Source: Mycolicibacterium mageritense (GTDB lineage Bacteria > Actinomycetota > Actinomycetes > Mycobacteriales > Mycobacteriaceae). From it: 32,000 bases of DNA. A program made the position numbers and the translations under genes. Positions 4,890-26,131 of this stretch are shown one piece after another. Each line of letters starts with the position of its first letter. Position 1 is the stretch's first letter. The notes under the pieces are model-generated. The model saw only the letters and a list, made by a program, of their open reading frames with translations, was not told where the DNA came from and ran no database searches. The DNA lies in assembly GCF_010727475.1 (NCBI RefSeq), contig NZ_AP022567.1, positions 2,481,910 to 2,513,909 of the forward strand, read 5' to 3'.

Positions 4890-4914
4890 TGACGGCGTGC
4901 GACGAAAAGAATTG

Positions 4915-9922: not shown

Positions 9923-10108
9923 CTAGTCCTCGTTCGTCAGGTTCGCCCGGGCGTACAGCAACCACGGGCAACCCTGAAAGTCTAGTTGGTCTGCGGCGCG
10001 GCGCCCTGCGGCGTGTCGTCGGGTGTCGGGGGAACGTCCCGCGTCGGGCGCGGCACCGAGCGAACCCGTAATTGTCGACGGCGTCATCGCCGCCGCCCCG
10101 GTCAGGCG

Positions 10109-11302
10109 TCAACGCAGCCGTGGCACGCGGCGATTGCGGTTGAACCCCTCGGCCACCGACGCGGTGAGATCCAGAAAGGCTTGCCGCGTCTTGCGATTCA
10201 GCAGATCCATCGATATCTCGGCGCCTTCGGCGAGGTGATCGTCGAACGGGATCACCACCACGTCGCGCACGCGGGCCTTGAAGTGCATGGTCAGCTGATC
10301 GATGTCGACGGGCACGGCGCCGGGCCGCGCCGAGCTGAGCACCACCGTGGCGTCGGGCACGAGATGGGCGTGGCCGTGATGCTGCAGCCAGTCCAGTGTC
10401 GCCAGGGCGCTGCGGGCCGAATCGATCGCCGGCGAGGCCACCAGGACCAGGGCATCGGCCGCGTCGAGCACGCCGTTCATGGCCGAGTGGGTCAAGCCGG
10501 TGCCGCAGTCGGTGAGGATGATGTTGTAGAAGCGATCCAGGATGTCGTGCACGGCCCGGTAGTCGGCCTCGGAGAACGCTTCCGACACTGCGGGATCGCG
10601 CTCAGAGGCCAGGATCTCCAGCCGGCTCGGGCTCTGTGAGGTGTGCCTGCGCACGTCGGAGTAACGGAAGATCTCCTGGTCGGCCAGCAGGTCGCGGACC
10701 GTGGAGCGAGTCTCGCTCGGGCCGCGCTGGGCCAGCGTCCCGAAGTCCGGGTTGGCGTCCACCGCGATCACGCGGTCGCCCCGGTTCGCGGCGAACGTCG
10801 AGCCGAGGCACACCGTCGTCGTTGTCTTCCCGACGCCGCCCTTGAGGGACAGCACGGCGATGCTGTACGCGCCGCGGACCGGCTGGTTCACCCGGTCCAG
10901 AGCGCTCTGCAGACGCGGATCTGCTTGCGGCTCAGGGAGATTCATCGTCCCGCCGGTCATGCGGTTCATGACCTTGCGCCAGCCGTTCTGGTGCGCCTGC
11001 TTGCGCGGGCGCAGCCCGAGCTCCTCGGCCGTCGTCCGCCGCGTGTAGATGACGGTCGGCTCATCCGGCACCGCGGCCGTGAAGTTCGTCGAAATCGGCG
11101 TCAGGCCGTGCGGCTGCGGCCGAGGATCCTGCGGGGGCGGTGGCGGTGGGGGCAGATATGGCTGCGGCTGGGGCGGAGGTGGCGGCGGGACAGCTTGGCC
11201 GTTCGAAGGCGGAGCCGGCTGACCGGAGGGCGCGCCGGGCACACGGATCGGCGTGGTCGCCTCATCCGGCTGCTGGTGGCCGTCAGGATCGGTCGGGGTC
11301 AA
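10109..11302 (-). CDS. EspI-like ESX-associated ParA/MinD-family ATPase with proline-rich N-terminus
   Basis: 397 aa. TTG start overlaps the eccA stop (TTGA, 11302-11299). N-terminal PPPPPPQPQPYLPPPPPPPQDPRP. C-terminal deviant Walker A SLKGGVGKTTTT, then DANPDFG and ILTDCGTG. Same architecture as ESX-1 EspI (Rv3876). Confidence 0.75.
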   Translation of the reverse strand: MTPTDPDGHQQPDEATTPIRVPGAPSGQPAPPSNGQAVPPPPPPQPQPYLPPPPPPPQDPRPQPHGLTPISTNFTAAVPDEPTVIYTRRTTAEELGLRPRKQAHQNGWRKVMNRMTGGTMNLPEPQADPRLQSALDRVNQPVRGAYSIAVLSLKGGVGKTTTTVCLGSTFAANRGDRVIAVDANPDFGTLAQRGPSETRSTVRDLLADQEIFRYSDVRRHTSQSPSRLEILASERDPAVSEAFSEADYRAVHDILDRFYNIILTDCGTGLTHSAMNGVLDAADALVLVASPAIDSARSALATLDWLQHHGHAHLVPDATVVLSSARPGAVPVDIDQLTMHFKARVRDVVVIPFDDHLAEGAEISMDLLNRKTRQAFLDLTASVAEGFNRNRRVPRLR

Positions 11303-13116
11303 GAGTCCAGATTCAGGGTTTGCAGGATGTTGCTGATCGCGGCCTTCATGTCGACGGCCTCGATCCGCATGAGGGCATCCTCGTCGAGGGATTCCAGTTC
11401 GGCGCCATGGCTTTCGCTGAGTCGGTACTCGCGCTCCTCCTCGGCCGACTCGATGACGTTTCGGATGAAACGGCCGTTGCCGGCGAGGTCGATATTGCGC
11501 CGGACCTTACCGTCGTGATCGGTCGACTCCTGGGCGCACAACCGGGTGCACACCGCGACGAGCTCGTCGTGGGCCTCCGAACTCAGCTCGGAGTCACGCG
11601 CCTTCGCGGTGATCCGGCCGATGTCACCGAGCTCGGCCGGGGTGTACGACGCGAACCGGATCCGCTTGGTGAAACGCGAGGACAGGCCTTCGTTCGAGGC
11701 CAGGAACCGGTCGATCTCGGCGTCATACCCGGCGATGATGACCACGAGCCGGTCGCGATCGTTCTCCATGCGCGCCAGCAGCGTGTCGACGGCTTCGCGG
11801 CCGAACGCGTCGCCACCGGACAGGCCGGTCTGAATCAGGGTGTAGGCCTCGTCGATGAACAGCACACCGTCCATCGCACTGTCGATCAGCGCCGACGTCT
11901 TGATCGCGGTGCTGCCCAGGTGCTGCCCCACGAAATCCTGGCGCTTGGCCTCGATCACCGCCGGTGTCTTCAAAAGCCCCAGGCCGCAATAGGTTTGAGC
12001 GACGACGCGGGCGATGGTGGTCTTGCCGGTTCCGGGCGGGCCGGTGAAGGCCAGGTGCAGGCTGCGGGCCGCGGTGGTCAGCCCCTTGTCCTCGCGCACC
12101 TTCGCCAGGCGGGCCGCCGAACGCAGCTTGGCCACCTGCAGTTTCACGTCGCTCAGGCCGACCTGCCGGTCCAGCTCGTCCTGGGCCGCCCGCAGATACT
12201 CGTTGCCTCGCTCGGTCAGGCTCTCGGCGTCGAACTCCGCCGCGCTGCGTGCGGACGCCGGATCCCACTTGTCGCTGCGGGAGTCGATGATCTCCTTGGT
12301 CGTGACGATCAGCCGGTACTTCGGATCGTTGAGTGCGGCGGAGTTCGCCTCGAAACCGGGTTCCTCGCTGTAGATCCGCTCGAAGATCTTCCTGGCTTCC
12401 GGCTCGTTGCCCATCTCGCGCAGGGTGAGGCCTTTGCAGAATTCGGCGGCGCGGCTTGCTGCGGGGATCGGCCCTTCGATCGCCTGGTCGAGCCTGCGCA
12501 GGCCCTCGCCGAACAATCCCATCTGCGCGCACGCCGAACCGACCATGAGGTGTGAGCCCGCGGAGATGTATTCGTCGGTGAACTGTGCGGACGCCGCCAA
12601 CGCCGTGAGCACGTCGGGCCACCGTTGCGTGGTGAAGTGCAGGACGCCGCGGATGTACGCGCAGATTTCGTCGGACCCCGAGTCGTCGGGCATGGTCGCC
12701 CGCAGCTTCGCGAGCTCGTCGAGGGCCATCTCGGCCTCGTCGTAATCCTTGCCCTGAATCATGCTGGCGGCGTATGCCAGGTGCACCTCGGTGAGAGAGC
12801 TCAGCGTGTAGTCCAGGTAGAGCCCCGTCTGGAACCGTCCGCCGAGAGTGCGCGGCGGCAGACCGAGCCGCCGCTGTTCACGACCCAGGTTCTTGCTCGA
12901 GCGATGAAGATGGTGGATCACCTCGGGCGTCGACTCGCCGGCCGCCGCCCGGCCCAGCCAGGCATCGCACATGTCGGGGTCGTACTCGGTGGCGCGTTTG
13001 AAAGCCAAGGCGGCGTACTGCACGTCGGGCTCGGTCTCCAAGCCGTCGATGGGTATCCCGAGGGACAGCACGCCCGCATCGAACACCCGCTGCGCGTCCC
13101 TGGTGCCACCACTCAT
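11299..13116 (-). CDS. eccA: ESX type VII secretion AAA+ ATPase EccA
   Basis: CbxX-type AAA+ half with Walker A FTGPPGTGKTT, Walker B VLFIDEAY and ARMENDRDRLVVIIAGY. TPR-like N-half (CDAWLGRAAAGE). Colinear with Mtb EccA1 from memory. Start placed at ATG 13116 (605 aa); the track ORF extends to 13197. Confidence 0.9.
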   Translation of the reverse strand: MSGGTRDAQRVFDAGVLSLGIPIDGLETEPDVQYAALAFKRATEYDPDMCDAWLGRAAAGESTPEVIHHLHRSSKNLGREQRRLGLPPRTLGGRFQTGLYLDYTLSSLTEVHLAYAASMIQGKDYDEAEMALDELAKLRATMPDDSGSDEICAYIRGVLHFTTQRWPDVLTALAASAQFTDEYISAGSHLMVGSACAQMGLFGEGLRRLDQAIEGPIPAASRAAEFCKGLTLREMGNEPEARKIFERIYSEEPGFEANSAALNDPKYRLIVTTKEIIDSRSDKWDPASARSAAEFDAESLTERGNEYLRAAQDELDRQVGLSDVKLQVAKLRSAARLAKVREDKGLTTAARSLHLAFTGPPGTGKTTIARVVAQTYCGLGLLKTPAVIEAKRQDFVGQHLGSTAIKTSALIDSAMDGVLFIDEAYTLIQTGLSGGDAFGREAVDTLLARMENDRDRLVVIIAGYDAEIDRFLASNEGLSSRFTKRIRFASYTPAELGDIGRITAKARDSELSSEAHDELVAVCTRLCAQESTDHDGKVRRNIDLAGNGRFIRNVIESAEEEREYRLSESHGAELESLDEDALMRIEAVDMKAAISNILQTLNLDS

Positions 13117-13272
13117 CCGTGGATCCCTATCTTTCGTCCGAACAACGTGGGGTTTCGCGGATTCGTCGACGCAGGCAACGCAGCCCCCAGCGGACAAATT
13201 ACTGCAGCCCGGCCTCCTGCGATTGTACTAAGTTGACACCTAGACGGCGTCCGAGTGTTTGGGGAGGTGCCG

Positions 13273-13599
13273 ATGGAGGTCCGGCCGGTGCGGTCGTCGG
13301 GTGGCGACATCCAGGTACTGACGACCGAACGGGGTCTGCCGATCCGGCTCAAACTCAGCCAGCGCGCGCTTGCGCAGGCTCCGCAGGATCTGGCGCAGGA
13401 GCTCCTGACGCTGTGCCAGCTCTCGGCCAAGCGGGCCCAGGTGGCACACCGGCGGGAATTGGCGCAGCGGGGGTTCAGCTCTGAGCTGGTTCGCAATTTC
13501 AACCTCGCGACCGAGGACGAGCTCGCGGCGGCCGAGGCCGCGTTCCGCGGCGACGACGACGAGGACGGTCCGCCCGATACGTGGATGAGGTCGGTATGA
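13273..13599 (+). CDS. Small YbaB/EbfC-EspL-like protein (core only) with acidic tail
   Basis: ATG 13273 with GGAGG 5 nt upstream. 108 aa. GGDIQVLTTERGLPIRLKLSQRALAQAPQDLAQELLTLCQLSAKRAQ resembles the YbaB/EspL core. Stop overlaps the next ATG (ATGA, 13596-13599). Confidence 0.55.
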   Translation: MEVRPVRSSGGDIQVLTTERGLPIRLKLSQRALAQAPQDLAQELLTLCQLSAKRAQVAHRRELAQRGFSSELVRNFNLATEDELAAAEAAFRGDDDEDGPPDTWMRSV

Positions 13600-13949
13600 A
13601 CGGCGGCCTGGCGGATTCGTTGATCGCGCGAATCATCAAGCAGCGCGATCTGATGCAGGCGATGGACGAGCACCTCAAGTCCATCTCCGCGCGGGTCACC
13701 AGCCGGGATCAGTCGGTCAGCGTCGAGGTCGACGGCATCGGGACTCTCAAGGGCATCTGGCTCGGCGAGAACGCGTACCGACATGGGCCGGACGGGCTGG
13801 CCCGGTTGATCATCGAGACCGGGCAGGCCGCTGCCAAGACCGCGCTGGACCGGCAGAACTACCTGATGAAGGAGTTCAACAGCCGGCTCGCGGCACTTCA
13901 GCAAACCCCGCTGACGAAGTGGGACGGAACGACGGTGACACCGTCGTGA
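13596..13949 (+). CDS. YbaB/EbfC-family, EspL-like protein
   Basis: 117 aa. N-terminal helix (LIARIIKQRDLMQAMDEHLKSISARV) followed by SVSVEVDGIGTLKGIWLGENAY...GLARLIIETGQAAAKTA. This is the same layout as YbaB and Mtb EspL (Rv3880c) from memory. Confidence 0.7.
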   Translation: MNGGLADSLIARIIKQRDLMQAMDEHLKSISARVTSRDQSVSVEVDGIGTLKGIWLGENAYRHGPDGLARLIIETGQAAAKTALDRQNYLMKEFNSRLAALQQTPLTKWDGTTVTPS

Positions 13950-14114
13950 TGGAACCGGTTATCTGTTTGCCGGCAGGTCAACCAGCGTTTGCTTGGCCTT
14001 GATGCGACTACAAGTGGGACAAAAATATGTGTTAGCTGCCCCTTGTGGCGCGGGTTATAGTTCCGAAAGGGACTAAAACCACAGCTACTTGGCAGTAACC
14101 GGGGAGGGGTAACG

Positions 14115-14405
14115 ATGTCCGACACCATGAAGGTTGTTCCTGGTGTGCTGGAGGCGTTCAACGCGGCCAACAGTGCAGCTGGTGCGACGATCTCGGCGGC
14201 GGGCTCCGCAGATGCCGCTGCCATGAGCAGCGCGGTGGCCACCGCCATCGGGCCGATCGGGTTGATCTACCTGAACGGATTCCTTCCGGCGATGTTCACC
14301 AACCTCACGCAGACCGTTGACGTCGGCCTGAACCACACCTTGATCGGTGCCGCGACCGAAGTTACGAAGGTGTCCACGGTCGCCACGGACGCTTCGTTCA
14401 CCTGA
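14115..14405 (+). CDS. Small helical T7SS-substrate-like protein (PE / EspC-EspF-like)
   Basis: ATG 14115 with GGAGG upstream. 96 aa, Ala-rich. N-terminal MKVVPGVLEAFNAANSAAG... follows the L-x-V-x-P-x-x-L pattern of PE/EspC-type proteins. Sits 3 nt upstream of a large WxG protein. Confidence 0.55.
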   Translation: MSDTMKVVPGVLEAFNAANSAAGATISAAGSADAAAMSSAVATAIGPIGLIYLNGFLPAMFTNLTQTVDVGLNHTLIGAATEVTKVSTVATDASFT

Positions 14406-14408
14406 CCC

Positions 14409-15809
14409 ATGCCGGCCACTCCAGCGCCGCCGGGCAATCCGACGCCGGTAGCCCCGTCGGTTCCGATCAGCCCAAGCCACCCCGGGAGCAGTGCACCTGC
14501 CCCGGTGTTCGATCCCACGCCGTACATCAACGCGCAGGAACAGAACCTCGCGGATTATCTGAATCAACCGGTCCAGGACATCCTCGCCAAGCTCGGGCTC
14601 CCGCCGCTGCCCAACGGTGCACCGCCGCCAGGTGAACCGCCGCCGGAGGGACAGCCGGGGCCCGCGAATCCCATGGATCCCAGCGCGATGATCCAGCCTG
14701 TGCTCGACGCACTCGGCACGTTGGGAACCGGGATCTTCGACAGCGTCGACCCGACCAAGATGTTCGAGGGCATCTCGAAGGCATTCGAGTCCGCATCCAG
14801 CTCGGTGCAAGAAGCACTCGGCTCGATGGAGGGCATGTGGTCGGGGGCTTCGGGCACCTCGGCCGCCGCCAAGACCGGCGAGACGCTGGCCAACGGTGCC
14901 CAGGTGGCATCCCAGTCCGCGGGGTTGGGTGCCAACCTGTCGACGTCGGTGGCCGATGTTCAGCAGGCCCAGATTCGGTTGTTGCAGATCATCGACGAGT
15001 ACAACGCCAAGATCGCGGCCATCGGGCCCAACATCATCTTCCCGTGGGGCCAGGCCCAGGCCGTCGAGGCGGCGACCCAAGCCATCACCATGACCACCGA
15101 GGTCATCACCGAGCTGCAGACCACGCTGGCCGCGCAGGGCGGCGAAGCCGCCGCGATCGGTGCGCCGACGGCACTGGCACAGGCGCCGACGGCCGCTTCT
15201 TCCATGATCAGCCCGATGATCCAGATGGCGACGGGCCTGGCGTCACCGCTGATGCAGGTTGCGACCGAAGGGCTGTCGACCGGCATGCAGACCATCACCG
15301 GTGCGGTGCAGAGCGGCGTGGAAACCGCGACGGGGCTTGCCTCGAGCCTCAGCGGCGCCGCGGGGAAGGGTGCCGACACCGCCGCGTCCACGGCCAGTGG
15401 CACCGGTGGCGCCGGGATGGCTCCGCTGAGCAAGGCCGGCGGAGGCGGCGGAGGAGGAGTACACGGTGGCGGAGGTGGCGGCGGCTCGTCGTCGGTGGCC
15501 CCGTCACGCATGATGACGCCGATGTCGATGCCCACCACCGAATCGACCAACGCCGTCCAGGGTGCCGTCAAACCCGCGTCCGTGTCCGGCGCGAGCATGG
15601 GCGGCGGCGGCATGGGCGGCGCCGGGATGATGGGCGCCGGCCACGGCGCGGGCAAGGCCGGAGTCGACGGCAGCGGACACAATGCCGCGGCGTTCCTGCA
15701 CACCTCCGATCAGGGCGACGAGATCGTCGGGGATCTCGGCAATGTGGCCCCGCCGGTGATCGGTGAGATCGACCCCAACGACAGTCCAGACATCGAACTG
15801 AGAATCTGA
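14409..15809 (+). CDS. Large WxG-containing T7SS-substrate-like protein (EspA/EspE/PPE-related architecture)
   Basis: 466 aa. Pro-rich N-terminus, then a helical region with W-x-G (MEGMWSGASGTSAAAK). A/T/S/Q/M-rich middle, poly-Gly (GGGGGGGVHGGGGGGG), Gly/Met-rich tail MGGGGMGGAGMMGAGHGAGKAG and C-terminal VAPPVIGEID. Confidence 0.6.
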   Translation: MPATPAPPGNPTPVAPSVPISPSHPGSSAPAPVFDPTPYINAQEQNLADYLNQPVQDILAKLGLPPLPNGAPPPGEPPPEGQPGPANPMDPSAMIQPVLDALGTLGTGIFDSVDPTKMFEGISKAFESASSSVQEALGSMEGMWSGASGTSAAAKTGETLANGAQVASQSAGLGANLSTSVADVQQAQIRLLQIIDEYNAKIAAIGPNIIFPWGQAQAVEAATQAITMTTEVITELQTTLAAQGGEAAAIGAPTALAQAPTAASSMISPMIQMATGLASPLMQVATEGLSTGMQTITGAVQSGVETATGLASSLSGAAGKGADTAASTASGTGGAGMAPLSKAGGGGGGGVHGGGGGGGSSSVAPSRMMTPMSMPTTESTNAVQGAVKPASVSGASMGGGGMGGAGMMGAGHGAGKAGVDGSGHNAAAFLHTSDQGDEIVGDLGNVAPPVIGEIDPNDSPDIELRI

Positions 15810-15824
15810 GTCAGGAGTTTTGAC

Positions 15825-16121
15825 ATGGCCAACACCAACGACTTTGCGATGCAGCCCACCGAGGTCGCCGATGCGACCAAGCAGCTCGACGATCTCGCGA
15901 GCCGCGTCGAGAAGGTCATGCAGACCGAGGCGCCCAACCTGACCGTGACCGCGTCCGGCCGTGACGAGGTGTCGCAGCGGGTCGCGTCGACCCTCAATGA
16001 GGTGCATGCCGCCTTCACGCGCTCGTCCGACCAGGGCATCAACGAGGTTCGCGAGGTTGCTGCGACGCTGCGCAAGCACACCGGCGACGTCGTCGCGATC
16101 GATCAGGACTTTGCTGTCTAG
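15825..16121 (+). CDS. PE-family-like protein
   Basis: 98 aa, ATG 15825 with CAGGAG upstream. TASGRDEVSQRVASTLNEVHAAF parallels the PE core (AAADEVSALTAAQFAAHAQMY, from memory). Immediately upstream of a PPE-like gene. Confidence 0.7.
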   Translation: MANTNDFAMQPTEVADATKQLDDLASRVEKVMQTEAPNLTVTASGRDEVSQRVASTLNEVHAAFTRSSDQGINEVREVAATLRKHTGDVVAIDQDFAV

Positions 16122-16172
16122 TTAGCTGGCAATCGAATCCGCGGGTTGTTTCGACCGGAGGGGGGTTAGACC

Positions 16173-17258
16173 ATGGGTTTCACCAATGTCGCGTGGGAGT
16201 CGCGCAGCACGGAGCAGCTCGCCCGTGACCTGACCGACGGTCCGGGGCCCACGTCCGTCGGGCAGGCGGGTGCCGCATGGGTGCGCGTCGCCAATGAATT
16301 GGCAAGTGTGTCGGCCGATTTCGACAAGATCGTGGAGCGCATCAAGGCCTCGTTCGCCAGCCAGGGATCCGAAGCCGCCACCCGCAAGCTCGAAGAGTTC
16401 GGCAAGTGGCTGCAGGCCATCAGCCTGAGCGCCGCGGCCAACGGCCAACGCGCCGAGGAAGCCGCCGTCGCGAACACCGTCGCGATCATGGCCATGCCGA
16501 GTGTTTCCGAGGCCATCGAGGCCAAGGCGTCGCAGGACATGATGGCCTCGCTGGCGGCATACAACGGCGCCATCCTCACCGGTCGGTTCGCCGAGTTCGA
16601 CGAAGCCGCCACCGCTGATCAGGCCAACGCTGCCGCCGTCATGCAGCAGTACGAAGAAGCGTGCAACGCCCTGGCCCAGCCATGGGACCAGCCGCTGCCG
16701 CCCGATGTCGCCAAGGGCGACGCGCTGAAGGCCGAGCAGGACGCCAAGGCCGGCGAAGGCTCGGGTGGCGGCGCAGGCGGCGGCGGGGCCGGGGGCGCCG
16801 GTGTGGCGCCTGCCCCGTTAGCTCCGTTCCGGGCCAACACCACCGCTTCGACCGGCGAGGCCAAGCCATTGCAGAAAGTCGCGGCCACGGGCGCTGGTGG
16901 TGGCAGCGGCATGGGCGGCGGCTATGGCCCGATGGCCGGTGCCCACGGCCGCGGCGACAACAACCGGGAGCACGAATCCTCGCTTCCCGCAGCCACATTG
17001 GCCGGTGGCGGCGAACCCGGTGCGGGCTTGTCGGACACCGGAGGCTCGTGGCTGCCCGCAGCGCAACAGAGCGATGCGCCGTTCACCGTGTCCAACGTCA
17101 GCTGGGGCCCCAACACGTCGGTGTTCGATGAGTTGGTGGTACCGGAGGGGCCTGAGGCTCCCGGGTTCGCCGACGAGCCGGAGCGCACTCTCGAGCAGGT
17201 GTCAGATCGCTGGGTGGCACCGCCTGTGATCGGCGTGGACAAGGGGCTGTCGATATGA
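16173..17258 (+). CDS. PPE-family-like protein (divergent, no literal PPE motif)
   Basis: 361 aa, ATG 16173 with GGAGGGGG upstream. The N-terminal ~170 aa are colinear with the PPE domain (GPGPTSVGQAGAAWVRVANELAS...; ...AAVANTVAIMAMPSVSEAIEAKA...AAVMQQYEEA). Gly-rich C-terminal half. Stop overlaps the espG ATG. Confidence 0.75.
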   Translation: MGFTNVAWESRSTEQLARDLTDGPGPTSVGQAGAAWVRVANELASVSADFDKIVERIKASFASQGSEAATRKLEEFGKWLQAISLSAAANGQRAEEAAVANTVAIMAMPSVSEAIEAKASQDMMASLAAYNGAILTGRFAEFDEAATADQANAAAVMQQYEEACNALAQPWDQPLPPDVAKGDALKAEQDAKAGEGSGGGAGGGGAGGAGVAPAPLAPFRANTTASTGEAKPLQKVAATGAGGGSGMGGGYGPMAGAHGRGDNNREHESSLPAATLAGGGEPGAGLSDTGGSWLPAAQQSDAPFTVSNVSWGPNTSVFDELVVPEGPEAPGFADEPERTLEQVSDRWVAPPVIGVDKGLSI

Positions 17259-18067
17259 CGGCGTCTCTGCAGCCCCAGTTCGTGCTCACCGACGATGAGT
17301 TGCAGGTGGCAGCCGCTCGCGTCGGGGTGCAGAGCTTCCCGACGGTGCTCGCGGTACGGCCACGGCATGCCACCCTCGACAAGCTTCACGCGGCATTCGA
17401 CAACGCGACCCGGGCTCTGACTTCGCGCGAGGTGATCATCGACGGGGTCGTGGAGCCCGACCTCGTGCCGATCCTGCAGGCGCTGCAACGGCCCGACCGT
17501 GAACTGGCGCTGCGATTGGTGACGCCGGAAGGCACGGCGCGCATCTGCGCGGTGCGCCGCGGCGGGCTGGGCGTCCTCGCCCGGCGTATCGGTCACGAGA
17601 TCACACTGCGCGTCATCGGTCACGGCACCGAATTACGCGACGTGGTGTCCGCGTTGTTGGCCGAGCTGCCACGTGCCGCCGCCGCGGACGTGACCCCGGT
17701 CGGCGCGCCGCTCGATGTGGTGGCCGAAAAGCTCTCCGGCACACACGATCCCGCCGTGCTGGCCGACCGCATCCGGGCGCTGGGAACCGAGCCTCGGGCC
17801 GCGATGCTGCTCGGCTCGGCGCTGGCGTCGCGTCAGGCATTCGGCGAGATCGTCTACTACGCGCTCAACACCGAAGAAGACCGGATCGTCCGCAGCCCGG
17901 CCGCCGTCGGCATCTTCTACACGAAGCGCGGTCGAATTGTGGGCGCGCCCAGCGCATCTCCCGCCGGGCAACTGTGGACCACACTGAAAGCCGGCTCCGA
18001 TCACGCCATCACGCAGGCGATCGCGCAGCTGGTAGAGCTTTCCGACGAGGGATGGGGGGTTCCTTAG
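17255..18067 (+). CDS. espG: ESX secretion-associated chaperone EspG
   Basis: 270 aa. ATGA overlap with the PPE-like gene. Typical EspG layout (FVLTDDELQVAAARVGVQSFPTVLAVRP...; ...RELALRLVTPEGTARICAVRRGGLGVLARR...; C-terminal ...VGIFYTKRGRIVGAP...WTTLKAGS...). Position after PE/PPE as in ESX loci. Confidence 0.85.
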   Translation: MTASLQPQFVLTDDELQVAAARVGVQSFPTVLAVRPRHATLDKLHAAFDNATRALTSREVIIDGVVEPDLVPILQALQRPDRELALRLVTPEGTARICAVRRGGLGVLARRIGHEITLRVIGHGTELRDVVSALLAELPRAAAADVTPVGAPLDVVAEKLSGTHDPAVLADRIRALGTEPRAAMLLGSALASRQAFGEIVYYALNTEEDRIVRSPAAVGIFYTKRGRIVGAPSASPAGQLWTTLKAGSDHAITQAIAQLVELSDEGWGVP

Positions 18068-18142
18068 GGGGAATGGCACTTGGCCCAAAGGCAGAAATCA
18101 TGAGCAACAACAGATCACGACCAGAAAGTGAGAAGTAGCGAA

Positions 18143-18412
18143 ATGACAGTTTCCCTCACACCGGCCGAGGCCGAGGCGAAGATCGATCAGATCAACTCCG
18201 CCCGCGACCAGGCCGTGCAGAAGCTCAACCAGATCGAGGACGCACAGCAGCAGATGCTCTCGGCGTCCTGGCAGGGCACGTCCGCGGGCAACTACGGGCG
18301 CGTCTCGCAGGCGCAGCGCGAGGAGTTCGACCAGCTGATCTCCACGCTGAACAACATCGTCGACAAGGGCTCCGAGCACATCCGCGCGGTGGCCAACCTG
18401 GACCAGGGCTAA
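18143..18412 (+). CDS. WXG100 protein, EsxB (CFP-10)-like
   Basis: 89 aa from ATG 18143; the track start GTG 18128 is an alternative. Two-helix protein with W-x-G (SASWQGTSAG, TGG at 18269-18271). First gene of an esx pair. Confidence 0.8.
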   Translation: MTVSLTPAEAEAKIDQINSARDQAVQKLNQIEDAQQQMLSASWQGTSAGNYGRVSQAQREEFDQLISTLNNIVDKGSEHIRAVANLDQG

Positions 18413-18427
18413 GGGAGGTAGGAAACA

Positions 18428-18718
18428 ATGGCTGCAGACGGCATTCTTTACAACTTCGGCGCCAACGCCGGGCACCTCGAGGACATCACCGGAATGGCCA
18501 ACGCCATTCAGGAAGTCCGCGGCGACATCCAGAGCATCTTCCAGGCTCTGTCCACGGTGTACGAAGGTGACGGCGCCACGGCGCTGAACCAGGCGCACCA
18601 GGAAGTCAACAACATGCTCGACGAAGCGCTCAACACGGTGGTCAACACCCAGAAGCAGGCGCAGGATCAGCAGGACGCCATGCAGGCGATGGACAAGGCG
18701 AACGCAGCTGCGTTCTGA
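18428..18718 (+). CDS. WXG100-like protein, EsxA (ESAT-6)-like, with Y-x-G in place of W-x-G
   Basis: 96 aa, ATG 18428 with GGGAGG upstream. Colinear by eye with ESAT-6 (ILYNFGANAGHLEDITGMANAIQ...). The turn reads STVYEGDGATA (TAC at 18560-18562). Confidence 0.78.
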   Translation: MAADGILYNFGANAGHLEDITGMANAIQEVRGDIQSIFQALSTVYEGDGATALNQAHQEVNNMLDEALNTVVNTQKQAQDQQDAMQAMDKANAAAF

Positions 18719-18732
18719 CCGGTAGCCGTGAG

Positions 18733-18762
18733 GCCCGGGCTTGCATGACCGCAAGCCCGGGC
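18733..18762 (+). terminator. Terminator-like hairpin downstream of the esx pair
   Basis: Perfect 12-bp stem GCCCGGGCTTGC (18733-18744) / GCAAGCCCGGGC (18751-18762), loop ATGACC, followed by TT. Starts 15 nt after the esxA-like stop. Confidence 0.55.
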
Positions 18763-18804
18763 TTCGCGGCTTGAATCAGGATCTAGCTTCAGGAAGGCAG
18801 TTTC

Positions 18805-19140
18805 GTGGGTAAGGACAAACCCCAACTCGAAACACTGACAGATCAAATGAAGGGTTGGCAGGCAAAAGATGCCGACCTGAAAATCTCCGAAGCAGGCAAG
18901 ACCAAGTACACAAACGCCATCAAGGCGCTCCGCGCCGAGCTGGTATCCGCACAAACCAAGCTCGCCGAGTTGAAGCAGATCGGGGATTCCGGTGCGTACC
19001 CCTCGGCAACAGCCACCAAAGCCGGGCTCGAGCAGAATGCCAAGACCCTGGACGAAACCCTTACGGCGTACATCGCATACCTGGACGCGTACAACCAGAC
19101 CGTGATCGACGCGTGTAACCGCATGGTGCAGTCCGGGTAG
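18805..19140 (+). CDS. Small helical protein, candidate PE-like partner of the following large protein
   Basis: 111 aa, GTG 18805 with AGGAAGG 7 nt upstream. Predicted all-helical, Lys/Ala/Thr-rich (TKYTNAIKALRAELVSAQTKLAELKQ...LTAYIAYLDAYNQTVIDA). Locally lower GC than its neighbours. No family recognised. Confidence 0.5.
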   Translation: MGKDKPQLETLTDQMKGWQAKDADLKISEAGKTKYTNAIKALRAELVSAQTKLAELKQIGDSGAYPSATATKAGLEQNAKTLDETLTAYIAYLDAYNQTVIDACNRMVQSG

Positions 19141-19179
19141 TTTTGAAAATCGCCACAGTTGTGTCAGAACGGAGCAGTC

Positions 19180-20610
19180 ATGTGCTTTGACGACATCGGA
19201 GACGCCATCGAGTCCGGCGCCGAATGGCTGGACAACTGGGGCGAGGAGAATCTGGGTCTGCCCGGGATGTTCACGGACTGGACCACGTACGACGGCGAGT
19301 ACAAGGACGGCAGCGGCAAGGTCGACCTCAGCGAAGTACCCGGCGGCTACCCGGTGGACGCCCTCAATGTCGCGCCCGGCTCATACACCACGGTCGCATT
19401 CACCGATGTGTACGACAACATGAAGAACGCCGGCGAGAACGTCACGAACGGGCACGCTGCGATATGGGAACAGATCTCGAACACCATGTCGCAAGCCGTC
19501 ATGACGTACAAGACCTTCCTGGAAGGCATCCGGGACTCCGACGATAACTGGGTAGGTAAGGCGGCGGATTCCGCCAACCAGAACATCACCACGTCGTTCG
19601 CTCAATTGGATGGCGCATCCAAATCGTCCACCGCGATGGTCCATCTGGCGCCAGCCTTCGCCACGACCATCGGCAATGTGGTCAAGGAAGTCGTCCACCG
19701 CAAGAGTGACTACGACGACGACATGAGTTCCTGGCCCGATCACCGGGACCAGATCAAGCGGGAGTACGACACGCTCGCGCAGTCCGTCATGTCGGACTAC
19801 GCCTCGAACATCGGCCAGATCGCGACGAAGAATCCAGACTTGACGGGTGGCAAGGAGAATCCCGAGAAGCCGGGACCGGCCGCCCCCACCAACACTCCGA
19901 CGAACTACGGTGGGCCGTCCAACAGCGGTGGCGGATCACCCAGTAAGGGTTCGGGCGCGGGCAAGCCGGACCTCTCCGGACTCAAGAAGACCACGGCCAA
20001 ACCGAATTTCGATCCCACGAAGCTGCAGCAGCAGACCACGCCGCAAAAGACCACGCCGCAGACGAGCACACCCAGCTTGCCGACCCAAGGGTTGACCGAT
20101 GCGGCCAAGGCCGCACAGGATGCTGCCAGTCAGGGGCTCGACGCGGCGAAACAAGCCATGGATCAGGCGCTCGGCAACAATCAGAATCCGTCTGGTCTGC
20201 CTGAAGGCGTTCTTGGGCTCGGCCCGAAGGGGCTGAGCGGTGCGGGCAAGGGCACCGGAGGTGGCGGCGGCCGTGCAGGCGGTGGCAGCGGCAGCGGTTC
20301 GGGGGCACGCACGTCGCCGCTGGCCCGCAACGCCGGTACCGCAACGGCGGCTACCACGAAAAGCACCGGCGCGACGACCACGGCCGCGCGATCCGGTATC
20401 AGTGCCGGTTCGGGTGCACCGGGCGCAGGGGCACCGGCTGCCGGGCATCGCGGCAACGGGGCCGACGGTTCGGTTCACAAGGCGAACAAGGCGTTGCGCC
20501 GCAAGAAGAACGGCGAGAACGTGATGGGCGACGCCGAGGCAGTGGTGGCGGTTGTCGGCGATGACACACAAGAACCGCGGATGGTTGTTCCGGCAGCTGC
20601 TGAGAAGTGA
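19180..20610 (+). CDS. Large WxG-containing PPE/EspB-like T7SS-substrate-like protein with disordered C-terminal half
   Basis: 476 aa from ATG 19180 (GGAG 5 nt upstream). The helical domain HAAIWEQISNTMSQAVMTYKTFLEGIRDSDDNWVGKAADSANQN... contains W-x-G at aa 124-126. This is followed by a P/T/Q-rich tract and a Gly-rich tract (GKGTGGGGGRAGGGSGSGSG) and a basic tail. The overall layout resembles EspB. Confidence 0.55.
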   Translation: MCFDDIGDAIESGAEWLDNWGEENLGLPGMFTDWTTYDGEYKDGSGKVDLSEVPGGYPVDALNVAPGSYTTVAFTDVYDNMKNAGENVTNGHAAIWEQISNTMSQAVMTYKTFLEGIRDSDDNWVGKAADSANQNITTSFAQLDGASKSSTAMVHLAPAFATTIGNVVKEVVHRKSDYDDDMSSWPDHRDQIKREYDTLAQSVMSDYASNIGQIATKNPDLTGGKENPEKPGPAAPTNTPTNYGGPSNSGGGSPSKGSGAGKPDLSGLKKTTAKPNFDPTKLQQQTTPQKTTPQTSTPSLPTQGLTDAAKAAQDAASQGLDAAKQAMDQALGNNQNPSGLPEGVLGLGPKGLSGAGKGTGGGGGRAGGGSGSGSGARTSPLARNAGTATAATTKSTGATTTAARSGISAGSGAPGAGAPAAGHRGNGADGSVHKANKALRRKKNGENVMGDAEAVVAVVGDDTQEPRMVVPAAAEK

Positions 20611-21605
20611 CGTTTCTGTCGTCGGCGGCCCTGCTCTTGCCACCTGCCACGCCCCTTACGGATCCAACCCTGGATATCAGCGGTAGATGGCGCGGAGTGT
20701 CCGCATCCCCCGGCCGCTCCCCGGTGGACATGGCGGTACAAGCCGGGCGGGCGGCAATCTCCGCCTCCGCGGTGTCGTCCACCGACGTCCGGTGGACCCT
20801 GCATGCGGGTTCGGGATATCAAGGCCCGATGGGTTGGCCCATCCACCACGGGATCCAACACGGCATCGTCGGCAACGTAGGCAATGCGCTCGAGGTCAAG
20901 CAATACTGTGCCGCGGGCCTCACCACGTGGATCATGGCGTCCAGCATGCTCTCTGGCGATGACGGCGCAGTCGTGTGCACAGGTGCCGACAACTGGTCGT
21001 GGGGCGACCGTTACGCGACCTCCCGCTCCGCGGGCGGGGAGCCGTTTTCAGATGTGGCGCACGCAGTCGTGCTCACCGGCGGCGACGGGTTCGCGGATAT
21101 CCTCGGATACGGGACCGCAAGCTGTCCCGGTCAGGCCCGAGTGTGGCAGACCCGAGAGAGTTTCTGGGAGAACGCGTCACTCGACGATTACCGCGCTGCC
21201 TATGAGCGTGCCGTTGCTGCGCACCGCCCAGAGGACGCCCGTGATTCCCTGCGGATGCTGGTTCGAGCGGTGAGGTCGGCACTTTCCGCGGCGGCGTTGA
21301 GTCCGCAGTACATCACTCATTTCATTCCGCATGGAACAGGCAGTGGCGAACCGTACCGAACCTTGGCCGACAAGATCGGGCTGCCGTGGTCGGAGGCCCT
21401 GTACGACTACCAGGTCGCCCAGGGATACCTCGCCGTCAGCACTCAGGTCGCCGGGCTGATTCATTGTGCCGAAACGGGTTTGAAGGCGGATTCCATCGTG
21501 CTTCTGGTGGCCGCGGAGTACCAGCTGAGCGCCACGGCCGTGGTCCTCAGAATCCTGCGGACCCCGCAAGTATCAGGAGACGGCGACGTTAGGGTGATGG
21601 CGTGA
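20607..21605 (+). CDS. KAS III (FabH)-like thiolase-fold protein with non-canonical catalytic residues
   Basis: 332 aa. GTG start overlaps the upstream stop (GTGA, 20607-20610). Colinear by eye with FabH: NALEVKQYCAAGLT (Cys101, TGT 20907-20909) vs AACAGF; HFIPHGTGSG (His242) vs VPHQAN; QGYLAVST (Tyr274) vs HGNTSAAS; C-terminal LLVAAEYQLSATAVVLR vs LLEAFGGGFTWGSALVR. Confidence 0.65.
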   Translation: MTFLSSAALLLPPATPLTDPTLDISGRWRGVSASPGRSPVDMAVQAGRAAISASAVSSTDVRWTLHAGSGYQGPMGWPIHHGIQHGIVGNVGNALEVKQYCAAGLTTWIMASSMLSGDDGAVVCTGADNWSWGDRYATSRSAGGEPFSDVAHAVVLTGGDGFADILGYGTASCPGQARVWQTRESFWENASLDDYRAAYERAVAAHRPEDARDSLRMLVRAVRSALSAAALSPQYITHFIPHGTGSGEPYRTLADKIGLPWSEALYDYQVAQGYLAVSTQVAGLIHCAETGLKADSIVLLVAAEYQLSATAVVLRILRTPQVSGDGDVRVMA

Positions 21606-22372
21606 GCAGGATCCCGATGAATCACGTCGGCTCGATCGACGTGGTCGATCTCACCGTCGTGAGCCGCGATCATGGTCGGGATTTCATCCCGTTCCCATTC
21701 ATGCAGACGCGTGCGTCCACAGTCGATCCCGAGGCTTTCGAGATGCACGCCCGCAAGGTGATCGAGAGGTTCTACAACGGTGACCTGAGTGTTCTCCAGA
21801 ACTGGGCAGGCACCTACGTGCGGGCGGACATCCGCGTCGAAGCCCACGTCCAGTTCATCCCAGCGGACAAGACCAGCGTTCGTGTCGTCGCCCACCGAAT
21901 GGGTGAGAAAGGCTACTTCGCGAGGCAGACAGACGCTGACGTGATCGAGATCTTCTCGTTGTCGCCTTACGATCTCGGTGAAGCAGTTGCGGAATCGATG
22001 GGCACGGTCACTCCCGGCAACCGCCCCGCGATCGTTGTCCCCGAGTACCAGGCACCCCCGTCGCCCGTCGAGGAAAGCGATGGGATTTCCGTCCGATCTC
22101 ATCGCGACTCCGACGAGATCGCCAAGATCGCTCGTGGCGAGATCAGTGCACTGGCGACTGTGCAAAGCCATTGGCGGCCCACCCGCAGGTGGGGAGTCGA
22201 CCGCGGGAAGAATGCGGTCGTGTGGGTGCGGGTACAAGATGACGGCGATTACCTGTATGCACCGGATTACACTGTGGCACAACCGATGTCAAAACCGCAG
22301 CTGGCTGCTCGGATCAACCGGCTGATTGCCGATGACGTCGCCGTGCTGCGCAGGTTCCGCGACGGCGCATAA
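21602..22372 (+). CDS. EspG-like protein (second copy, divergent)
   Basis: 256 aa. GTGA overlap with the upstream gene; alternative ATG at 21617. Same block order as the EspG at 17255 (DFIPFPFMQTRAS..., ...ADIRVEAHVQFIPADKTSVRVVAHRMGEKGYFARQ...EIFSLSPYDLGEAVAESMG, C-terminal ...VVWVRVQDDGDYLYAPDYTVAQPMSKPQLAARINRLI). Assignment made by eye only. Confidence 0.5.
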   Translation: MSRIPMNHVGSIDVVDLTVVSRDHGRDFIPFPFMQTRASTVDPEAFEMHARKVIERFYNGDLSVLQNWAGTYVRADIRVEAHVQFIPADKTSVRVVAHRMGEKGYFARQTDADVIEIFSLSPYDLGEAVAESMGTVTPGNRPAIVVPEYQAPPSPVEESDGISVRSHRDSDEIAKIARGEISALATVQSHWRPTRRWGVDRGKNAVVWVRVQDDGDYLYAPDYTVAQPMSKPQLAARINRLIADDVAVLRRFRDGA

Positions 22373-22802: not shown

Positions 22803-23048
22803 CACCTGGTTCTCCACCGGAGTCAAATCGTAGTTCTCGTCCAGATAGCGTGTTGACCGTCTCTCGGGATGACGACCACGAGGTACTCATCCGTCATTGA
22901 GCTTGCCGATGTGACCGTTGGCGTGGTCGCCAGGTTGATCTTGGTCGTGTGCACCATCAGTGTGACGAGGAACTGATGGGTCGCGCGGCACCCCGCTGAA
23001 GTCTTGGTGGGCTCGCAGGGTGCCGCGCTGTAGTGCACGGAGGCACCG

Positions 23049-23695: not shown

Positions 23696-23761
23696 TCCTC
23701 GCGAAGGCACCTGCCCGACAAACAGTTTCGGGCCGGGCCATTGACTGTGTGAGGAGAGACG

Positions 23762-26025: not shown

Positions 26026-26035
26026 ACCTAATCCG

Positions 26036-26095
26036 CGTCACCACGGCGACGACCACGTCACCGCGACGAGGATCCCGTCACCGAGATCACCAACG
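26036..26095 (+). repeat. Three phased direct repeats (heptamer CGTCACC every 20 bp), candidate transposase-binding sites
   Basis: CGTCACC at 26036, 26056 and 26076 (exact 20-bp spacing): CGTCACCACGGCGACGACCA / CGTCACCGCGACGAGGATCC / CGTCACCGAGATCACCAACG. Begins 11 nt after the ATPase stop. Confidence 0.7.
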
Positions 26096-26124: not shown

Positions 26125-26131
26125 CTCATCA

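Follow-up and report, generated by a model that had tools for sequence, protein, structure and literature searches.

Cargo and chaperone genes beside gyrA of Mycolicibacterium mageritense most likely form one arm of a spread-out ESX-4-bis locus

Results

Gene content of the region

The window analysed here is a stretch of 32,000 nucleotides of the chromosome of M. mageritense DSM 44476. Next to gyrA, which is the left boundary of the type VII secretion (T7SS) region and lies outside the T7SS itself, it carries 15 genes between positions 10109 and 22372 (the arm), and the content of cargo, chaperones and EccA read there in the initial annotation was borne out by family profile searches:

6155–9922, minus strand: gyrA with a 421-aa LAGLIDADG intein (aa 131–551, window 8270–9532); Pfam DNA_topoisoIV E 3.7e-146, LAGLIDADG_3, Intein_splicing
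10109–11302, minus: EspI-like protein, 397 aa; Pro-rich N-terminus and ParA/MinD ATPase domain (CbiA/AAA_31)
11299–13116, minus: EccA, 605 aa, AAA+ ATPase with TPR-like N-terminal domain; TIGR03922 and PF21545; ORF open to 13197
13273–13599, plus: conserved 108-aa protein, divergent from eccA, always paired with a YbaB-like gene
13596–13949, plus: YbaB/EbfC-fold protein, EspL-like by family; PF02575 E 1.4e-8, 35.3 bits (GA 25.5)
14115–14405, plus: EspC/EspF-like small partner, 96 aa; own Pfam EspC match weak (E 0.0064)
14409–15809, plus: putative substrate, 466 aa; Pro-rich N-terminus, helical core with WxG (W144), Gly/Ala-rich tail, C-terminal VAPPVIGE
15825–16121, plus: PE protein, 98 aa; PF00934 E 2.2e-12, 47.5 bits (GA 22)
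16173–17258, plus: PPE protein, 361 aa; PF00823 E 1.3e-14, 55 bits (GA 26); C-terminal VAPPVIGV motif
17255–18067, plus: EspG-1 chaperone, 270 aa; PF14011 E 1.9e-44; ATGA overlap with the PPE gene
18143–18412, plus: EsxB/CFP-10-like WXG100 protein, 89 aa, W43-Q-G; WXG100 26.3 bits (GA 27.3), TIGR03930 29.6 bits
18428–18718, plus: EsxA-like partner, 96 aa, without WxG motif; WXG100 21 bits, sub-threshold
18805–19140, plus: small helical protein of 111 aa, partner to the 476-aa protein, opening the variable cassette; synteny with homologues of the 476-aa protein and EspG-2
19180–20610, plus: putative substrate, 476 aa; helical N-terminal region with WxG (W124), Pro/Thr/Gly-rich tail, C-terminal AVVAVVGDD
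20607–21605, plus: KAS III (FabH)-like acyltransferase-fold protein of CerJ/ChlB3/DpsC type, 332 aa; PDB/CerJ similarity; GTGA overlaps on both sides
21602–22372, plus: EspG-2, divergent EspG-like chaperone, 256 aa; PF14011 E 9.1e-9, 35.7 bits (GA 27)

The ends of the gyrA intein read CITGD...SHN/T. EccA, which is 100% identical to a protein of M. mageritense DSM 44476, scores 620.8 bits against TIGR03922 (cut-off 466.65) and E 2e-111 against PF21545, and its stop codon is overlapped by the TTG start of the EspI-like gene. A ParA gene follows eccA in every related locus compared, and the combination of ParA domain and Pro-rich N-terminus, the latter also kept in M. peregrinum (L091), is an EspI-like architecture; both assignments stand as first made. 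At 57% identity, the EspI-like protein aligns with the C-terminal half, the ATPase part, of a 589-aa MinD/ParA protein of the M. arabiense plasmid pJCM18538 (NZ_AP022592.1). Two YbaB/EspL-like proteins had been proposed; the one at 13596–13949, whose gene overlaps the 108-aa gene by ATGA, is retained, but its 108-aa neighbour has no Pfam or NCBIfam family match and an hhalign probability to YbaB of 13%. The 108-aa gene has a dN/dS of 0.09 and, together with the YbaB-like gene, lies beside eccA in 17 of 77 core loci.

The four pairs of small and large proteins are supported to different degrees. PE and PPE exceed their gathering thresholds. The Esx pair is below the Pfam and NCBIfam thresholds (26.3 and 21 bits vs 27.3), but has counterparts in pJCM18538, where the EsxB-like protein matches a protein annotated as WXG100 (63% identity) and the EsxA-like protein matches the neighbour of the latter (67%). 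Three of the eight pair proteins (466, 111 and 476 aa) have no significant family assignment. The 466-aa protein gave no significant match in Pfam and NCBIfam searches; it has syntenic homologues in seven loci (38–81% identity), and its AF2 model is predicted to be helical at low confidence. The 111-aa protein had no family match in the profile searches, and the 476-aa protein had weak PPE/EspB_PPE matches alone (E 0.002–0.006; hhalign to PPE 39%), its AF2 model likewise being of low confidence. The 96-aa protein appears EspC-like only via its plasmid homologue (50% identical), which reaches 26.7 bits against EspC (GA 23.5) and carries the annotation 'type VII secretion target'. A search of PE, the EsxB-like protein and the other small partners for a canonical YxxxD/E motif gave none.

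Both proposed EspG-like chaperones were confirmed by PF14011; the nearest solved relatives of EspG-1 are EspG3 and EspG1 (E about 1e-11), and EspG-2 is 42% identical to an annotated EspG of pJCM18538. The thiolase-fold enzyme could be specified as KAS III-like by its matches to PDB 9z38 (E 4.8e-17) and CerJ 3s3l (E 1.2e-14); the Cys aligned with the CerJ RCNGG motif is retained, and the conserved His aligns with Tyr.

Gene integrity

Each of the 15 arm ORFs is unbroken in several strains as well as in two other taxa. Purifying selection acts on all 15 genes, with dN/dS of 0.06–0.31 at dS of 0.5–1.3 relative to M. peregrinum, and the overlaps of start and stop codons are present as ATGA (13596, 17255), GTGA (20607, 21602) and TTGA (11299), which upholds the earlier view that the genes are functional and not decaying.

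The adjoining DNA

To the right of the arm the window contains the following features:

22380–27112, minus: membrane-anchored beta-propeller protein, 462 aa (Conj_beta_prop_9 by precomputed Pfam); gene split here by the transposon
22851–26188, plus: 3.3-kb transposon; Mu-like rve transposase (23762–25213) and AAA_22 ATPase (25210–26025), by Pfam
27247–27702, minus: 151-aa protein, membrane segment at the N-terminus; gene linked to that of the propeller protein (gene calls)
27695–29668, minus: 279-aa membrane-protein gene, split by an IS630-like element (about 28493–29621, TA duplication)
29877–30646, plus: YbaB-like (156 aa) and WXG100-like (98 aa) genes upstream of the toxin gene; PF02575 E 1.1e-12; TIGR03930 24.2 bits, sub-threshold
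30685–32000, plus: 5' part of the gene for a 2082-aa WXG100_2/Abhydrolase_8/Ntox15 polymorphic toxin; WXG100_2 E 3.5e-24, the rest by precomputed domains on the full gene

This DNA is itself T7SS-related, consisting of the YbaB/WXG100/WXG100_2-toxin cassette and three genes that adjoin eccE in M. asiaticum, among them the beta-propeller gene and homologues of the 151-aa protein. The propeller gene and the 279-aa gene, the host of the IS630-like element (DDE_3 E 1.4e-21), are unbroken in other strains, and the transposon, bordered by a 6-bp ATAGCG duplication, is strain-specific and missing from strain BAAHWH. Over its left 150 bp the transposon matches M. intracellulare plasmids at 100% identity. 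Because the transposon and the IS interrupt two of the three membrane-protein genes between the arms, the ESX-4-bis system may be impaired in the type strain. The toxin gene runs past the window end and is followed by a gene for a GAD-like protein, which may be the immunity partner.

Location of the membrane core

As initially noted, no credible match to EccB, EccC, EccD, EccE or MycP occurs in the window, judged by tblastn in six frames with the core proteins of M. mageritense and of pJCM18538, the closest complete system. The best core match was a single chance-level EccD (E 3e-4) in one run, with none at E ≤ 0.01 in the other, while cargo and EccA queries in the same runs matched the window at 40–81% identity. 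The M. mageritense EccB (P0283), located via its protein cluster, belongs to a core locus (L094; CCBF010000001.1, 2104706–2126214) encoding EccE, EccB, EccD, EccC (1343 aa), a second EccD, MycP and an open EspI-like ORF. The window was placed at about 2061.9–2093.9 kb of this contig and the core at about window-equivalent 40.7–56.2 kb, where a gap of about 2.5 kb from L003 to L094 is covered solely by the gene calls of other strains. Measured from the window end, the EspI-like gene is 8.7 kb and mycP 12.3 kb away, which puts the start of the core 18–22 kb from the end of the arm; the whole machine (EccB, EccC, two EccD, EccE, MycP) with the long EspI-like protein occupies about 18–34 kb beyond the arm. 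The distance from eccA to mycP in this strain is about 31 kb, or about 27 kb minus transposon and IS. The eccA gene of M. mageritense had already been reported well downstream of mycP, at '~17 kb' (Morgado & Vicente 2020, PMC7478629), and the ESX-4-bis gene order in this species was described by Dumas et al. 2016 (PMC4779608).

Related loci

The module of cargo and EccA directly abuts an ESX-4-bis-type core in at least nine related genomes and one plasmid. Among the 77 loci from the EccB-profile search, 23 have an EccA of the same type within 10 kb and 16 contain the PE/PPE/EspG/Esx/466-aa homologues; moreover, at least 12 EccA relatives (≥79% identity) share a contig with an EccB of this type. 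The split layout recurs in M. peregrinum, where a single 86-kb contig carries both arms and the chromosomal surroundings are different, the flank being the egt operon there and gyrA in M. mageritense. The module order varies among M. mageritense, M. wolinskyi, M. asiaticum and pJCM18538. In the metagenomic relative L010 the proximal genes are 79–93% identical to the window (68% for the 96-aa gene) and the four distal ones 35–55%.

All modules are present in pJCM18538, with identities of 81% for EccA, 57–70% for ParA, 56% for YbaB, 56% for PE, 53% for PPE, 54% and 42% for the two EspG, 63–67% for the Esx pair and 40–44% for the 466-aa homologue; of its core proteins, EccC and EccB are 82% and 62% identical to those of M. 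mageritense. Unlike here, the system is plasmid-borne, and its two arms adjoin each other in a span of about 35 kb. The plasmid has a 752-aa protein where M. mageritense has the 476-aa one, and no KAS III-like gene.

Discussion

In our view the region from 10109 to 22372 is very probably the arm that encodes the substrates and cytosolic accessory proteins of one dispersed chromosomal T7SS locus, the ESX-4-bis of M. mageritense, which is a known system of ordinary mechanism. The region had been taken for an orphan cargo island or a rearranged or novel ESX variant; a module of cargo, chaperones and EccA without core genes in the window is indeed present, but the orphan or novel reading fails because the membrane machine is encoded on the same chromosome, at a distance of about 20 kb. 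With eccB–eccE and mycP encoded beyond the window end, the locus is complete but dispersed.

M. tuberculosis ESX-1 likewise has EccA, EspI-like, EspL-like (YbaB fold), EspC-like, PE/PPE, EspG and Esx proteins, although the gene order of the arm differs from it. The EccA N-terminal domain scores higher against EccA5 (6.7e-50) and EccA3 (3.7e-34) than against the ESX-1 EccA1 (2.4e-30), the arm's EspG is just remotely similar to EspG1 and EspG3, and the ESX-4-bis core, unlike ESX-1, carries eccD twice and encodes EccC in a single gene. ESX-4-bis, described from M. mageritense, M. sp. 960 and ICEMyc226 (PMC4779608; PMC7478629), is the same locus as that studied here and is reported to group phylogenetically with ESX-4, whose classical order in M. 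abscessus, M. smegmatis and M. tuberculosis is eccB/mycP/eccD/eccC/esx without PE/PPE or espG (PMC4779608). In contrast to classical ESX-4, the M. mageritense locus has PE/PPE, espG and eccA. Classical ESX-4 is also not known to carry eccA. The published ESX-4-bis was described without PE/PPE and espG (PMC4779608), whereas between mycP and eccA the extended locus includes PE, PPE, two EspG, the Esx pair and additional cargo; the presence of PE/PPE and espG appears to be new, as do the toxin-immunity cassettes between the two arms and the placement of the whole region, about 56–71 kb, between gyrB and gyrA beside oriC.

It is possible, though clearly less probable, that the arm, or its distal part of 111 aa, 476 aa, KAS III-like and EspG-2 genes, is an exchangeable cassette recombining between ESX-4-bis loci like polymorphic effector modules, in which case its present position would reflect recent exchange rather than an operon of fixed design; such exchange could occur in the dispersed ESX-4-bis locus as well. 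The drop in identity of the distal genes in L010, the differing distal content of pJCM18538, the variable module order and the different flanks in M. peregrinum all favour it, but no bounding recombination breakpoints, repeats or integrase sites were identified, and direct repeats sought at the two ends of the island were limited to chance 9–12-mers. A true orphan island, acquired separately, feeding another core such as ESX-1, ESX-3 or ESX-4 and lying near ESX-4-bis by coincidence, is improbable. Zero core genes lie in the window, about 18 kb of other genes intervene between the module and the closest gene of the core arm, and satellite substrate loci are known, some genes of M. tuberculosis ESX-1 (espACD) lying away from its core; against this, the same EccA/ParA/108-aa/YbaB/cargo module abuts the core elsewhere, its EccA relatives share contigs with the same EccB type, and M. 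peregrinum retains both arms in another chromosomal setting. A decaying remnant, whose core was deleted and whose remaining genes are becoming pseudogenes, is hardly credible: the locus does end right after the ParA gene, where the common layout has eccE and eccB, and a transposon and an IS have inserted close by, but the selection analysis already contradicts it, as do the intact ORFs, the retained translational-coupling overlaps and the intact cognate core nearby.

For the dispersed ESX-4-bis locus, we infer from linkage only that the cargo of the arm is functionally coupled to the ESX-4-bis core. Other ESX systems are said to exist in M. mageritense (PMC4779608), and some arm proteins could in principle be exported by them. 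By analogy with established ESX biology, EspG-1 would keep the PE/PPE dimer soluble and direct it to the ESX-4-bis core, and the divergent EspG-2 would play the same role for the 111/476-aa pair in its own cassette. EccC would recognise the Esx dimer and the EspC-like/466-aa pair, EccA would recycle the chaperone-substrate complexes, and the neighbouring WXG100_2 and RHS toxins would probably pass through the same channel. The present layout probably arose through the shuffling of modules in a mobile ESX-4-bis region, sited in M. mageritense between gyrB and gyrA.

Gene content at 10109-22372

The window has a GC content of 60–70% and a strong third-position GC bias in its ORFs, from which a clear gene map was obtained. 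Its features up to position 22372 are as follows.

117-644, - strand: ppiA, an ordinary oriC-proximal gene in the left part
left part: TetR regulator, FAD monooxygenase and DinB-like gene, also oriC-proximal
4914-5214: tRNA-Ala and tRNA-Ile, in the left part
left part: DUF3566 (Rv0007-like) gene
6155-9922, - strand: gyrA with a LAGLIDADG intein, in the left part
within 10109-22372, first gene: ParA/MinD ATPase of 397 aa with a Pro-rich N-terminus (EspI-like)
within 10109-22372: EccA (TIGR03922, 620.8 bits against a cut-off of 466.65)
within 10109-22372: 108-aa protein without family, then a YbaB-fold protein
within 10109-22372: 96-aa and 466-aa proteins, the former EspC-like through a plasmid homologue that is above the Pfam threshold
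within 10109-22372: PE (47.5 bits), PPE (55 bits) and EspG (152.6 bits, E 1.9e-44), all above their gathering scores
within 10109-22372: two WXG100-like proteins (the Esx pair), both below threshold
within 10109-22372: 111-aa and 476-aa proteins without significant family assignment
20607-21605: KAS III-like protein of 332 aa (E 4.8e-17 to PDB 9z38, 1.2e-14 to CerJ)
within 10109-22372: second EspG-like protein (35.7 bits, gathering score 27)

The gene content proposed in the initial annotation, namely EccA, an EspI-like ATPase, PE-like and PPE-like proteins, two EspG-like proteins and a thiolase-fold enzyme (here recognized as KAS III-like), is borne out, and the ATGA, GTGA and TTGA overlaps between the genes are real, the PPE and espG genes sharing an ATGA. 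Of the two proteins that had been taken as YbaB-like, one is supported and the 108-aa protein is not (hhalign against YbaB, 13%, without family support). The four small-plus-large helical pairs are likewise present, but the Esx pair stays below threshold, and no family could be assigned with significance to the 466-, 111- and 476-aa proteins. In the Esx pair, the WXG100 scores are 26.3 and 21 bits against a gathering score of 27.3, and those of TIGR03930 are 29.6 and 24 bits against 44.85; one of the two proteins has a WxG motif, and the pair shows 63–67% identity to that of the M. arabiense plasmid pJCM18538 (NZ_AP022592.1), where one member is annotated as WXG100. Comparison with hhalign also gave no family support for the 476-aa protein as PPE (39%) or for the 111-aa and 96-aa proteins as PE (0.2% each). 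A PDB sequence search with the 466- and 476-aa proteins returned no meaningful match, and their single-sequence AlphaFold2 models are helical, with mean pLDDT values of 40.6 and 42.2 that are too poor for a fold search. The canonical YxxxD/E export motif was looked for in the small partners and not found.

Compared with M. peregrinum, dN/dS is 0.06–0.31 for all 15 genes of the region, with a dS of 0.5–1.3 in 14 of them and a saturated dS (3.4) in the second EspG gene. Moreover, the reading frames are unbroken in two other taxa as well as in several M. mageritense strains. The 15 genes are kept up by selection, and the earlier view of them as functional and not decaying stands.

Location of the secretion core

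In a six-frame tblastn of the window, EccB, EccC, EccD, EccE and MycP of pJCM18538, the closest complete system found, gave nothing credible (one chance-level EccD match, E 3e-4), whereas the cargo, EspG, EccA, YbaB and ParA proteins of the same plasmid all matched with 40–81% identity. The core proteins of M. mageritense itself had no match in the window at E ≤ 0.01, so the core genes are indeed missing from it, as had been noticed at first. An EccB profile scan with one genome per species yielded 77 loci of one core type, M. mageritense not being among them, and its protein was also absent from the best 120 matches of the M. wolinskyi EccB. The M. mageritense EccB (P0283) was found through the M. 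peregrinum EccB, whose 90% cluster includes it; the M. mageritense core is closest to the M. peregrinum type, and the locus of P0283 is on the contig of the window.

The EccA of the window is 100% identical to a protein of M. mageritense DSM 44476, and exact-protein matches placed the window on record CCBF010000001.1 of that strain, with which it is nearly, not exactly, identical. The differences are a 10-bp indel in the ParA gene and, at the ends of the transposon and of the IS, slight changes in tandem copies, and thus the coordinates outside the window, projected from this record as window-equivalent positions, are good to about ±0.4 kb. The 10 bp are additional in the window (11138-11147, in the Pro-rich (CCN)n part of the EspI-like gene); the gene is frameshifted in the CCBF version, where it is called as 320 aa, and encodes 397 aa in the window and in other strains. 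This indicates that the window belongs to another assembly, either of the same strain or of one that is nearly identical. The core arm reads as follows, in window-equivalent positions.

about 40.7-43.6 kb: EspI-like protein, 974 aa
about 44.3-45.7 kb: MycP
about 45.7-47.2 kb: EccD
about 47.2-51.2 kb: EccC, 1343 aa, a single gene
about 51.3-52.8 kb: EccD (second)
about 52.9-54.4 kb: EccB
about 54.5-56.2 kb: EccE
after EccE: MAP_0900/DUF5336-like gene

All ORFs of this arm are intact according to the gene calls and Pfam (loci L093-L096). It starts with the EspI-like gene 8.7 kb beyond the end of the window, with mycP 12.3 kb beyond it; counted from position 22372, the two genes are 18 and 22 kb away and the core spans 18–34 kb. 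Likewise between gyrB and gyrA, the PE, PPE and two EspG genes are separated from mycP by 22–29 kb. Therefore eccB, eccC, eccD and mycP, by which an ESX locus is complete, are lacking within the window and present in the extended locus on the same contig, which also has an EccA above the TIGR03922 cut-off as well as PE/PPE and EspG. The initial annotation had left a choice between an orphan cargo island and a heavily rearranged or novel ESX variant; neither an orphan nor a novel variant is supported here, since the profile and genome-level search found EccB, EccC, EccD, EccE and MycP nearby, in a single gyrB-gyrA region. An EccA island without a machine would be a surprising architecture, but the machine is next door.

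Relationship to ESX-4-bis and other systems

What lies at 10109-22372 is one arm of the known M. mageritense ESX-4-bis locus, the one with the cargo, chaperone and EccA genes. ESX-4-bis was defined by Dumas et al. 2016, who stated it to be without PE/PPE and espG and by whom its EccB, EccC and MycP are reported to group with ESX-4 (PMC4779608). In their comparison of ICEMyc226 and M. mageritense, Morgado & Vicente 2020 described the same order, with eccA ‘~17 kb’ downstream, the ICE copy being a roughly 40-kb ESX-4-bis region between 167-bp repeats (PMC7478629), and lateral transfer of ESX-4-bis was inferred by Mortimer et al. 2017. Given the published order and the remote eccA, the system and its distant eccA were already known. 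The PE/PPE/EspG/Esx arm is absent from the gene-content accounts of ESX-4-bis in these three papers. The extended locus of M. mageritense has the core-arm genes of ESX-4-bis, but differs from the published type in having PE, PPE and two EspG genes; since this locus defines the type, the description of ESX-4-bis needs amending, and the membership is not in doubt.

Other identities do not fit. A satellite locus of the espACD type would be unlinked to any core, whereas here core and cargo share a single region devoted to T7SS, with gyrB and gyrA as its borders. A fragment of ESX-1 that arose when eccA1 and eccB1 were parted by an inversion was rejected, as neither the gene order nor the similarities of the EccA N-domain and EspG fit ESX-1: the order in ESX-1 is eccA-eccB-eccCa-eccCb-PE-PPE-esxB-esxA-espI-eccD, whereas here the ParA gene comes after eccA, with gyrA next, and instead of eccCa and eccCb there is a single EccC in a core of another order. 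ESX-P systems are plasmid-borne, typically beside type IV-like conjugation genes, whereas the present setting is chromosomal and oriC-proximal, no plasmid match exceeded 18% coverage, and megablast against plasmids gave eccA-level similarity only, which means that no known plasmid contains this region as a segment.

Distribution and order of the modules

When the window and plasmid proteins were mapped onto the 77 EccB-profile loci, this type of EccA was located within 10 kb of EccB in 23 of them, EccA plus the 108-aa/YbaB pair in 17, and cargo or EspG homologues in 16. The PE/PPE/EspG-bearing arm abuts the core in other genomes, the nearest contiguous version being that of Mycobacterium sp. 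ST-F2 (EccA 90%, PPE 86%). M. peregrinum 852002-10433 has the split of the M. mageritense type on one 86-kb contig (core from 1 to about 19 kb, EccA at 48.2 kb), with the ergothioneine (egt) operon, not gyrA, as its ParA-side flank, and in M. wolinskyi, M. brisbanense and M. aquaticum EspG and Esx genes are downstream of mycP. These varied layouts mean that the module order is fluid, and the cargo/EccA module is consistently associated with this core type. In addition, the 108-aa/YbaB pair, EccA and ParA are beside the core in many ESX-4-bis-type loci, namely L012, L014-L017, L019, L021-L024, L027, L028, L043, L069 and L078, with no PE, PPE or EspG found within 10 kb; such loci may lack the cargo arm or, like M. 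mageritense, have it at a distance. In a minimum of four further genomes (CBMA 226, 1423905.2, pUA109 and URHB0044), this EccA is on the contig of EccB, more than 10 kb apart.

Compared with L010, a metagenomic relative, the 111-aa, 476-aa, KAS III-like and second EspG proteins (18805-22372; 798-4265 in L010) show 35–55% identity, against mostly 79–93% for the proximal genes. Judged by these identities, the distal four genes look like a swappable cargo-plus-chaperone cassette.

Cargo proteins and the KAS III-like enzyme

The three large cargo proteins share a C-terminal motif, in the forms VAPPVIGE (14409-15809), VAPPVIGV (16173-17258) and AVVAVVGDD (19180-20610), and a 752-aa protein of pJCM18538 has VVPVIGDD. 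The motif is kept across homologues, and the tails of the 466- and 476-aa proteins align in hhalign at 87%. This VAPPVIG-like C-terminus may be a system-specific export or recognition signal. The gene of the KAS III-like protein (CerJ/ChlB3/DpsC-type) stands between those of a putative substrate and an EspG, with translational coupling to both; the Cys aligned to the RCNGG motif of CerJ is retained, but a conserved His aligns with Tyr. To our knowledge, no such enzyme occurs in classical ESX loci.

By analogy with established ESX biology, the first EspG (17255-18067) would chaperone the neighbouring PE/PPE dimer and give the system its specificity, and the divergent second EspG (21602-22372) would serve the 111/476-aa pair of its own cassette. 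On the same grounds, the Esx dimer and the EspC-like/466-aa pair would be clients of EccC, EccA would remodel or recycle the cytosolic complexes, and the YbaB-like protein would have an EspL-like stabilising role. Export would then proceed through the EccB/C/D/E-MycP complex of the other arm, and the WXG100_2 and T7SS_signal toxins probably take the same channel.

Interval between the arms and toxin cassettes

The DNA between the arms is related to T7SS as well. It encodes three membrane proteins, of 462 aa (a beta-propeller), 151 aa and 279 aa, a trio that adjoins eccE in M. asiaticum, and it also has DUF7161, 505-aa and 327-aa genes. A cassette of YbaB, WXG100 and a 2082-aa WXG100_2-Abhydrolase_8-Ntox15 toxin occupies 29877-32000 and continues to about 36.9 kb (10001-17725 in loci L001/L003); the toxin gene is followed by one for a GAD-like protein, a possible immunity partner. 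Beyond the core arm, near gyrB, another toxin (an RHS protein of 1994 aa with a T7SS_signal domain) is encoded together with SUKH immunity, and DUF1942 is also there. Together the two toxin cassettes suggest an antibacterial role for the ESX system, and with toxins and immunity genes in the locus, a part in bacterial competition could be put to the test in a mycobacterium that is tractable and grows fast.

Two insertions are found in the interval. A 3.3-kb transposon (22851-26188) with a Mu-like rve transposase and an AAA_22 ATPase, the inverted repeat TGTTGRCCGTC and a 6-bp ATAGCG duplication splits the beta-propeller gene in the strain of the window only, and over its left 150 bp it matches two M. 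intracellulare plasmids at 100% identity. An IS630-like element (DDE_3, 1.1 kb, about 28493-29621, TA duplication), which other strains do not have, splits the gene of the 279-aa membrane protein. Thus, of the three membrane genes linked to ESX-4-bis, the type strain carries two in broken form.

It is conceivable, though we would put it at somewhat less than an even chance, that ESX-4-bis is not a minimal ‘ancestral’ ESX-4-like machine but a full-featured, mobile T7SS. If so, the extended locus would be equipped with an EccA of its own, PE/PPE, two EspI-like ATPases, two EspG chaperones and an exchangeable cargo cassette with a KAS III-like enzyme, and the toxin-immunity pairs within it (WXG100_2-Ntox15/GAD-like and RHS/SUKH) would suggest that it serves interbacterial antagonism. 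In M. mageritense the whole region of about 56–71 kb has split the normally adjacent gyrB and gyrA near oriC. ESX-4-bis has been cast in evolutionary scenarios as an ancestral type lacking PE/PPE/EspG, and the linked PE/PPE, EspG and EccA modules in many mycobacteria bear on when these modules arose. The remaining interest lies in the corrected gene content of ESX-4-bis, the embedded toxin cassettes and the gyrB-gyrA split.

The gyrB-gyrA setting

In M. tuberculosis gyrB lies directly beside gyrA, as it does, as far as is known, in mycobacteria generally. The order here is rpmH-rnpA-yidD-yidC / dnaA-dnaN-gnd-recF-dciA-gyrB / T7SS region / gyrA-tRNAIle-tRNAAla-ppiA, an unusual break of a highly conserved gene pair; no report of gyrB and gyrA split by a T7SS region was found in the literature searched. 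gyrB is at about 81.3-83.3 kb window-equivalent (loci L097 and L100), and from its stop to the gyrA start there are about 55.6 kb in BAAHWH. In DSM 44476 this distance is about 71 kb, the extras of the type strain being an 11-kb integrase-bearing block by gyrB, the 3.3-kb transposon and the 1.1-kb IS. A search for direct repeats at the ends of the gyrB-gyrA region found only chance 9–12-mers. Being parted from gyrB, gyrA needs its own promoter in the 186-bp spacer 9923-10108.

The block of about 11 kb near gyrB (about 69.2-80.6 kb window-equivalent; L100 10667-20627 and L098 1-1459) contains a Phage_int_SAM_1 recombinase, 594-, 713- and 136-aa genes, a hydrolase, an FAD monooxygenase, a TetR regulator and a peptidase M19. 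It is present in DSM 44476 and one other strain, not in BAAHWH, and cuts short a 251-aa gene. The GyrA intein has 421 aa with a LAGLIDADG endonuclease domain (8270-9532, - strand) and is inserted after Tyr130 (CITGD...VSHN/T).
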